DNA from: Escherichia coli
Lineage (GTDB): Bacteria; Pseudomonadota; Gammaproteobacteria; Enterobacterales; Enterobacteriaceae
DNA length: 11,220 nt
Assembly (NCBI RefSeq): GCF_003334765.1
Contig: NZ_QOWT01000057.1
Direction: 5' to 3' (one strand)
The position numbers and the translations under genes are program-made. Shown here in pieces: positions 1-770 of this stretch. Every line of letters starts with the position of its first letter. The first letter of the stretch is position 1. The notes under the pieces are model-generated. The model made no database searches. It had not been told where the DNA came from and saw only the letters and a list, made by a program, of their open reading frames with translations.

Positions 1-735
1 CAGTCTGGCATCATCAGATATAACCCGGCTCTGGATATGGCTGGTGCATTGACCACGGTAAAACGCCAGCATCGCCCTGCTCTGGATCTTTCACGCCTGC
101 CTGAACTTCTGTCGCGTATTGACGGTTATAAAGGTCAGCCTGTCACCCGACTGGCAGTTATGCTGAATTTACTGGTTTTTATTCGTTCCAGTGAACTCAG
201 ATATTCCCGCTGGTCTGAAATTGATATTGACAATGCCATGTGGACTATTCCAGCCGAACGCGAACCTCTGCCAGGCGTAAAATACTCACACCGGGGCTCC
301 AAGATGCGAACACCACATCTTGTGCCACTCAGCAAACAGGCTGTAGCCATACTGACAGAACTACAGACATGGGCTGGTGAAAATGGTCTGATCTTTACGG
401 GAGCACATGACCCGCGTAAACCGATCAGTGAAAATACTGTAAATAAAGCCCTGAGGGTGATGGGATATGACACAACCCAGGAAGTCTGTGGTCATGGATT
501 CCGGGCGATGGCGTGCAGTGCATTGATTGAATCAGGTTTGTGGTCCCGCGATGCTGTGGAACGTCAGATGAGCCATCAGGAGCGTAATGGTGTACGTGCT
601 GCATATATCCATAAAGCAGAACATCTGGAAGAACGTCGACTGATGCTACAGTGGTGGGCAGATTTTCTGGGTGCGAACAGAGAACAATGTATCAGCTCGT
701 TTGAATATGCAAAGATTAACAATCCATTAAAATAG
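1..735 (+). CDS. int: P4-family tyrosine integrase, C-terminal portion (5' end lies upstream of window start)
   Basis: Frame 1 is open from nt 1 with no stop. Translation contains the catalytic-domain signature HGFRAMACSAL...RNGVRAAYIHKAEHLEERRLMLQWWADFL (R..Y catalytic Tyr region followed by the EERR.M.QWWAD motif typical of P4/CP4-57-type integrases). Stop TAG at 733-735. Confidence 0.9.
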   Translation, partial: QSGIIRYNPALDMAGALTTVKRQHRPALDLSRLPELLSRIDGYKGQPVTRLAVMLNLLVFIRSSELRYSRWSEIDIDNAMWTIPAEREPLPGVKYSHRGSKMRTPHLVPLSKQAVAILTELQTWAGENGLIFTGAHDPRKPISENTVNKALRVMGYDTTQEVCGHGFRAMACSALIESGLWSRDAVERQMSHQERNGVRAAYIHKAEHLEERRLMLQWWADFLGANREQCISSFEYAKINNPLK

Positions 736-742
736 TAATCAT

Positions 743-770
743 CCCGGGCTGCCAGCCCGGGAATTATTTT
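743..770 (+). terminator. Rho-independent terminator downstream of integrase
   Basis: GC-rich perfect stem CCCGGGC (743-749) / GCCCGGG (755-761) with 5-nt loop TGCCA, followed by AATTATTTT, 8 nt after the int stop codon. Confidence 0.6.

Follow-up and report, generated by a model that had tools for sequence, protein, structure and literature searches.

An intP4 integrase gene at the probable tRNA-proximal edge of a malX-bearing pheV island in Escherichia coli

The integrase gene and its product

The window, as the whole 11,220-nucleotide stretch of Escherichia coli DNA analysed here is called, opens inside an integrase gene. Frame 1 of the plus strand runs without interruption from base 1 to a TAG codon at 733-735. 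Its 244 codons correspond to residues 177-420 of a protein with a full length of 420 residues, that is, to the end of the central domain and the entire catalytic domain. The translation matches the NCBIfam model NF007246 ("integrase domain", E = 2.6e-35), and in the approximately 30 complete E. coli genomes that match window positions 1-1000 at 99.9%, the gene is annotated as "tyrosine-type recombinase/integrase". To the right of a terminator-like hairpin the order is phosphoethanolamine-transferase remnant, IS3 element, MarR-family gene, IS66 remnants and malX/malY cargo (Table 1). With a probability of roughly 0.92, positions 1-735 are the 3′ part of intP4, encoding a P4-family tyrosine integrase, at the tRNA-proximal edge of an E. 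coli pheV island (GI-pheV or PAI-pheV) with a malX-bearing cargo variant.

Table 1. Integrase gene, adjoining features in the window, and arm-type repeats of the reference elements.
Feature	Position	Strand	Basis or remark
intP4, 3′ 58% (codons 177-420 and stop)	1..735	+	open frame, NCBIfam, F1022/746 comparison, P4 Int, PF00589
Arg238 codon (box I, FIRSSELR)	184..186	+	invariant with P4 Int and lambda R212
Lys277 codon, catalytic lysine	301..303	+	invariant with P4 Int and lambda K235
His341-Gly-Phe-Arg344 codons (box II, H-x-x-R)	493..504	+	H341/R344 invariant with P4 Int and lambda H308/R311
His368 to Tyr378 codons (SHQERNGVRAAY)	574..606 (His368, 574-576; Tyr378, 604-606)	+	H368 invariant with lambda H333; Y378 with P4 Int
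Pro409 to Ser, C-terminal tail	697 (T; C in F1022 and 746)	+	sole difference within 1-735
Intrinsic-terminator-like hairpin TCCCGGGCTGCCAGCCCGGGA, then ATTATTTTAT	742..771	+	stem scan and folding
Phosphoethanolamine-transferase gene remnant, last ~30 codons, cut by IS3-family element	832..921	-	RefSeq annotation of identical DNA, strain 746 and F1022
Decayed IS3-family element, 23-nt inverted repeats at ends	948..2542	+	inverted repeat 96% complementary; NCBIfam IS3 transposase fragments
Int-side arm pair, F1022 GI-pheV: TGTGGGTATAA / TTGCGGGTATAC	123 nt after tRNA end, ~50 nt before ATG		
Int-side arm pair, phage P4: TTGGGGGCATAA / TTGGGGGCATCT	112 nt after core end		
Far-end arm pair, F1022 GI-pheV: TGCGGGTATAA / TTGAGGGTACA	ends 74 nt before CCA end of attR core		
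Far-end arm pair, phage P4: GTGGGGGCACAA / AAGGGGGCATAT	ends 73 nt before core's CCA end		

A preliminary description of this DNA had called the gene a P4-type integrase, and comparison bore this out. In a tblastn search of phage records, phage P4 Int was found to be 54.6% identical in amino acids over 97% of the length (residues 1-408, E = 3e-150), a direct test of the label. The part of the protein encoded in the window aligns with P4 Int without internal gaps as far as the C-terminal tail. Moreover, the full-length integrase of F1022 (NZ_OY754357.1), the closest complete genome, contains three Pfam domains: Arm-DNA-bind_3 (residues 3-88), Phage_int_M (98-192) and Phage_integrase (209-383). 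The last of these, PF00589, corresponds to amino acids 33-207 of the window translation. The arm (PF13356) and central (PF22022) domains lie outside the window; both are present in the F1022 protein and, on public contigs, in the full-length Ser409 protein itself.

The likeness to P4 Int, together with an attP layout as in P4, would also suit the integrase of a P4-like satellite prophage, as opposed to that of a genomic island. This is extremely improbable, given that nothing P4-like lies 3′ of int, where the phosphoethanolamine-transferase remnant, IS3 and IS66 remnants, a MarR regulator and malX/malY are found instead. Further on, the F1022 island carries citrate-lyase genes, Ag43 and a CP4-44-like "yee" module.

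The protein encoded in the window differs by one residue from residues 177-420 of the 420-residue integrases of F1022 and strain 746. The full protein was therefore assembled from the strain-746 N-terminus and the window C-terminus and used in an exact-sequence lookup, and 122 blocks of the public collection proved to contain precisely this Ser409 protein. None of the 25 complete-genome matches listed for window positions 1-1000 reaches 100%. Proline is kept at position 409 in the CFT073, CE10 and 536 alleles.

Catalytic residues

The R...K...H-x-x-R...H/W...Y set of PF00589 tyrosine recombinases is present in the window integrase. R238, K277, H341, R344 and H368 are invariant with both lambda and P4 Int, and Y378 is invariant with P4 Int, in agreement with the earlier claim of an intact catalytic C-terminus. 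When structures were searched by sequence with the window protein, none with a catalytic domain was retrieved, relatives being solved for their arm and central domains only; lambda Int therefore served as the alignment reference for assigning the catalytic residues. In BLASTP, coverage of lambda Int was limited to the box I-Lys region (E = 0.006). In the MAFFT alignment lambda Y342 does not fall in the Y378 column, and the assignment of Tyr378 was for this reason made by motif and spacing: it sits 10 residues past H368, compared with 9 in lambda. Tyr378 is thus the presumed nucleophile.

Terminator and DNA directly 3′ of int

The terminator that had been described after the gene was also found. 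A hairpin with a 9-bp stem (742-762), seven of whose pairs are G-C, begins 7 nt past the int stop and is followed by the T-rich tail ATTATTTTAT. Its folding energy is -19.1 kcal/mol (z = -4.4), and none of 200 shuffled sequences folds as well. A scan with the terminator consensus returned one site against a mean of 1.0 in shuffled sequence; the weight is therefore placed on the fold and on the position directly after the stop codon.

The phosphoethanolamine-transferase remnant next to the hairpin has counterparts elsewhere. In strain 042 this gene is annotated without a pseudogene flag, in ST38-type genomes the match ends at the remnant, and in H10407 the copy is truncated differently, having been cut by IS1. 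From these three observations, the gene appears to have been the first cargo gene that this island lineage originally carried. The IS3-family element that follows is annotated as frameshifted and with an internal stop; the original island DNA on the int side ends at this element.

Several features farther right were recorded as well. At window positions 4296-4298, between the stop codon of the MarR gene (4289-4291) and IS66 tnpB (4376), IS100 is absent, although each of the 16 complete genomes with a match over the whole window has a 1954-bp IS100 at this site. The IS100-less junction reads GTATGA|CACGG in the window and in contig L021, with one additional nucleotide in contig L022 and two in L019. 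The additional nucleotides correspond to the left end of IS100, and contig L023 breaks off at exactly this point. The absence of IS100 could reflect assembly collapse across the repeat, an excision footprint or a true empty site. Upstream of malY/malX, an intact open reading frame of 637 codons on the minus strand (5872-7785) has no NCBIfam match, and its RefSeq name varies by genome between "hypothetical protein", "enterotoxin" and "alpha-galactosidase". Among aldolase gene fragments downstream of malX, a 30-nt inverted repeat (10897-10958) is 90% complementary, with 2 nt between its arms.

The pheV gene upstream of the integrase

The window does not hold the 5′ 528 nt of int, its promoter, the tRNA, or an att or arm site, and the upstream features are read from near-identical public sequences. 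No tRNA gene and no Rfam family match were found in the window. In F1022, whose integrase gene has 420 codons, the window begins at codon 177, and the order is speC, yqgA, tRNA-Phe (GAA), 197 bp and int. The exact protein was found at six listed places. At five of these (L019 and L021-L024) the order is mltC-nupG-speC-yqgA-tRNA-Phe-int, with tRNA-Phe at locus positions 5728-5803 and the 420-codon int at 6001-7263; the L019-type place stands for 15 further similar places beyond those listed. Of 6735 ungapped positions compared between contig L021 and the window, 6733 agree. The contig carries the full 420-codon int, with the end of tRNA-Phe (GAA) 197 bp upstream of the ATG, beside yqgA-speC-nupG. 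This neighbourhood identifies the tRNA gene as pheV. Extension beyond the window edge therefore leads, in the exact-protein contigs, into a full-length integrase gene of 420 codons that is not 5′ truncated. With tRNA-Phe 197 bp before the full gene in near-identical contigs, the att core is predicted to lie about 725 bp to the left of window base 1.

Further genomic comparison gave a similar picture. Among 33 complete genomes with this allele and the IS3 junction (at least 99.8% identity), an intact pheV is adjacent to int in 26, and among the complete genomes that match the whole window it is adjacent in 15 of 16. More broadly, yqgA-pheV-int was found at a coverage of at least 80% in 3384 of 5426 complete genomes. 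In the definition of GI-pheV given by Nhu et al. (2024; PMC11537424), the upstream gene is followed by pheV and then intP4, and the order yqgA, pheV, intP4 is seen in F1022 and in the exact-protein contigs. As in P4-type elements, int stands beside an att core formed by the tRNA 3′ end in F1022, L019 and L021-L024, and a repeat of 22-26 nt is found at the same place in tandem arrays.

Elements stacked at pheV

The adjacency of integrase and attachment tRNA, which had been taken as general for the family, held for most of the sequences above. In 7 of the 33 close complete genomes and at one of the six listed places, however, only a tRNA-derived repeat is found. The int gene of the seven genomes is preceded merely by a tRNA repeat of 22-50 bp, because another element has inserted at pheV. 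The upstream match starts from tRNA position 54 in five of them and from position 27-28 in two. In strain 746, only TTCATTCCGAGTCCGGGCACCA stands before int, 197 bp upstream, with ParDE and a CP4-44-like module farther upstream; the intact pheV was found approximately 63 kb further on, by a different integrase of 394 amino acids that is 38% identical. In TUM9803 and contig L020 the newcomer has SPI-7-type ICE genes (ParA, DnaB-PI, ParB) and the repeat is about 50 nt long, and AR13438 has type I restriction genes in the DNA upstream of int. Evidently, elements stack at pheV, and each newcomer leaves a tRNA repeat of 22-50 nt before the older integrase. The att core was located 197 bp upstream of int in all cases seen, and a complete tRNA gene in about four fifths of them.

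The genome from which the window derives could itself hold such a tandem array, with a second element in pheV, int behind a tRNA-derived repeat and the intact tRNA tens of kb away. This arrangement occurs in the seven complete genomes with this allele (746, TUM9803 and AR13438 among them) and in contig L020, one of the six exact-protein places listed. For the window it is nevertheless unlikely, as pheV is adjacent in nearly all of the complete genomes that match the window over its whole length and at the other five exact-protein places listed, including the near-identical L021. Direct adjacency of pheV and int is thus the preferred reading.

Two further observations concern the tRNA repeats and the flanks of the site. 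RefSeq annotates a 78-nt "tRNA-Ser" upstream of int in TUM9803 (L011, 5973-6050), where only the ~50 nt of the pheV 3′ end are repeated; at the equivalent place of L020, ARAGORN found no tRNA. This tRNA-Ser is probably a miscall on a hybrid att repeat. Where pheV carries no island, as in K-12-type genomes, another tRNA-Phe locus, taken as pheU, matches the pheV region of F1022 (L003, 36399-36636) at ~94% from 48 nt upstream to 114 nt downstream of the tRNA, ending 10 nt short of the arm repeats; at the island-free pheV itself, the match stops 8 nt past the tRNA. The 114 nt, with the tRNA terminator hairpin among them, may represent a remnant of an old island at pheU or an ancestral flank that the island carries.

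Attachment sites and the distal end of the island

The preliminary description had recognised no tRNA-derived direct repeat in the window, and none was found: searches that allowed up to 3 mismatches or 4 edits gave no match to the pheV 3′ end. Nor did the window contain any other att-like direct repeat, the repeat search giving pairs at chance level and the IS3 terminal repeats. The statement on the distal end rests on F1022. In this genome, an imperfect attR, TTCGATTCCGATTCCGGCACCA, with one substitution and one deletion, was located at L004 30049-30070, oriented like pheV. Its distance from pheV, and hence the approximate length of the island, is 55.5 kb, and it falls 41.5 kb past the right end of the window; its neighbours are the DUF4942 gene of the "yee" module on one side and the kps capsule locus on the other. 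A mismatch-only search of F1022 for the 19-nt core had returned no distal repeat; the corresponding reading, that attR was erased in F1022, was dropped when the edit-distance search revealed the indel-bearing attR.

The distal end had earlier been left as either outside the window or erased by the IS66/rsmI rearrangement. As the F1022 attR lies so far beyond the window, a position outside the window is favoured by this comparison, and erasure in the IS66 region is disfavoured.

Arm-type repeats were found near both ends of the F1022 island (Table 1). In about 264 kb of fetched loci, the motif TGYGGGTATAM occurs only at the int-proximal and attR-proximal places; in the window it is absent, with one chance-level near-match inside malX. 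In the record of phage P4 (NC_001609 / X51522), the core is likewise annotated as flanked on each side by tandem arm repeats of 12 bp. Putative arm sites thus flank the core of the pheV island, as is the case for P4-type integrases.

Comparison with known pheV islands and phage P4

GI-pheV was reported in 52% of complete genomes, with intP4 as its only conserved gene. Its attR repeats of 19 bp and 23 bp were present in 66% and missing from 34% of the islands, and intP4 divergence was below 1% within an allele and 4-6% between alleles (PMC11537424). The imperfect attR of F1022 is of the 23-bp type. The part of int in the window shares 92.0-96.3% nucleotide identity with the integrases by pheV in CFT073, IAI39, 536, H10407, 55989, 042 and Sakai. 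Of the reference alleles tested, that of ETEC H10407 (intP4.2 group) is the closest, with 96.3% nucleotide and 96.7% amino acid identity over the window part. The two share the order yqgA-pheV-197 bp-int, a length of 420 amino acids and a phosphoethanolamine-transferase remnant downstream, whereas the cargo differs (malX/malY, IS3 and IS66 here). At 3.7% divergence from H10407, compared with 4.8-8% from the other six references tested, the window allele stands at the edge of the published within- and between-allele ranges. It may therefore, as judged by this divergence, be an unnamed allele or a relative of intP4.2.

The integrases of PAI I-CFT073 and PAI V-536 use the pheV site and belong to the same family, with nucleotide identities to the window part of 92.0% and 94.4%, respectively. 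They have 421 amino acids compared with 420 here, a different C-terminal end and different cargo modules. The IAI39 and CE10 islands were rejected as references for the window's island type, as they carry a 421-amino-acid allele and pap/aerobactin cargo.

Phage P4 resembles the present system in having a three-domain tyrosine recombinase of the arm-binding type, a core formed by the 3′ end of a tRNA gene, int directly beside that core, and tandem arm repeats of 11-12 bp on both sides at nearly the same distances. It differs in the core sequence (GAGTCCGGCCTTCGGCACCA), in the arm motif (TTGGGGGCATAA) and in the C-terminal tail of Int, which is longer and unlike that of the window integrase. P4 Int mobilises an 11.6-kb satellite phage and not an island of ~55 kb.

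Mechanism and functional state

By analogy with P4 and lambda-type enzymes, for which this mode of action is established, the N-terminal arm domain, encoded outside the window, would bind the short arm-type repeats, while the central and catalytic domains would bind the core, the last 19-23 bp of pheV. Tyr378, aided by R238, K277, H341, R344 and H368, would cut and rejoin the strands. An incoming circle would thereby be inserted into pheV, and recombination between attL and attR could excise it again.

The preliminary description had suggested that the integrase may still be functional. In a comparison with seven pheV integrase alleles (225 codons; 3.7-8% DNA divergence), dN/dS was 0.05-0.11, a sequence-level measure which shows purifying selection on the reading frame. 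Since the gene is intact and appears to be under such selection, a functional integrase is plausible, and the retention of the catalytic residues also favours function. On the side of caution stand the imperfect attR of F1022 and Ser409 in place of an otherwise conserved proline; likewise, no excisionase was identified. An imperfect attR is described in the literature as reducing or abolishing excision.

Alternatively, the integrase may be an inactive relic, intact by recent descent only, in an island that has become fixed and has lost excision. The substitution and the deletion in the F1022 attR relative to attL are consistent with this, as is the report that GI-pheV mostly evolves together with the core genome and that islands are stabilised by mismatches in their repeats (PMC11537424). 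The DNA directly 3′ of int is riddled with IS elements, and one relative, CFSAN061762, has an IS1 in the matching stretch. Against a relic, the low dN/dS across alleles 4-8% apart in DNA argues for long-term selection on the protein, all catalytic residues are kept, and arm repeats are retained at both ends of the island. Excision has moreover been reported for related pheV islands, that of the strain 536 island being summarised in PMC7545054. A relic is thus a possibility to be taken seriously but a doubtful one, and a functional integrase remains a plausible reading.

In CFSAN061762 (NZ_CP042901.1, 771392-773168), an IS1A splits the stretch that matches window positions 1-1000, and two integrase features are annotated. 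Based on this, the integrase is apparently disrupted and the gene dispensable in that genome.

A further, speculative reading is that the window allele (Ser409, 420 amino acids, 3.7-8% from the seven references) represents a distinct and still active intP4 lineage, possibly acting in trans on stacked pheV elements and shuffling modules between tandem islands. Such action in trans could follow from the retention of both sets of arm repeats and from the position of the gene behind other elements in seven of the 33 genomes; as a whole, this reading is quite improbable.

Significance

The integrase in the window is confirmed as an ordinary, already described feature, and its novelty is at most that of an unnamed allele. 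Beyond correct annotation, the integrase result is of little consequence. What it provides is a place for the window in the genome, at what is probably the left border of a pheV island in an E. coli of extraintestinal type with the malX marker, and a name for the attachment tRNA. By comparison with F1022, the far end of the island would be expected approximately 40 kb to the right and not in the IS66 region.
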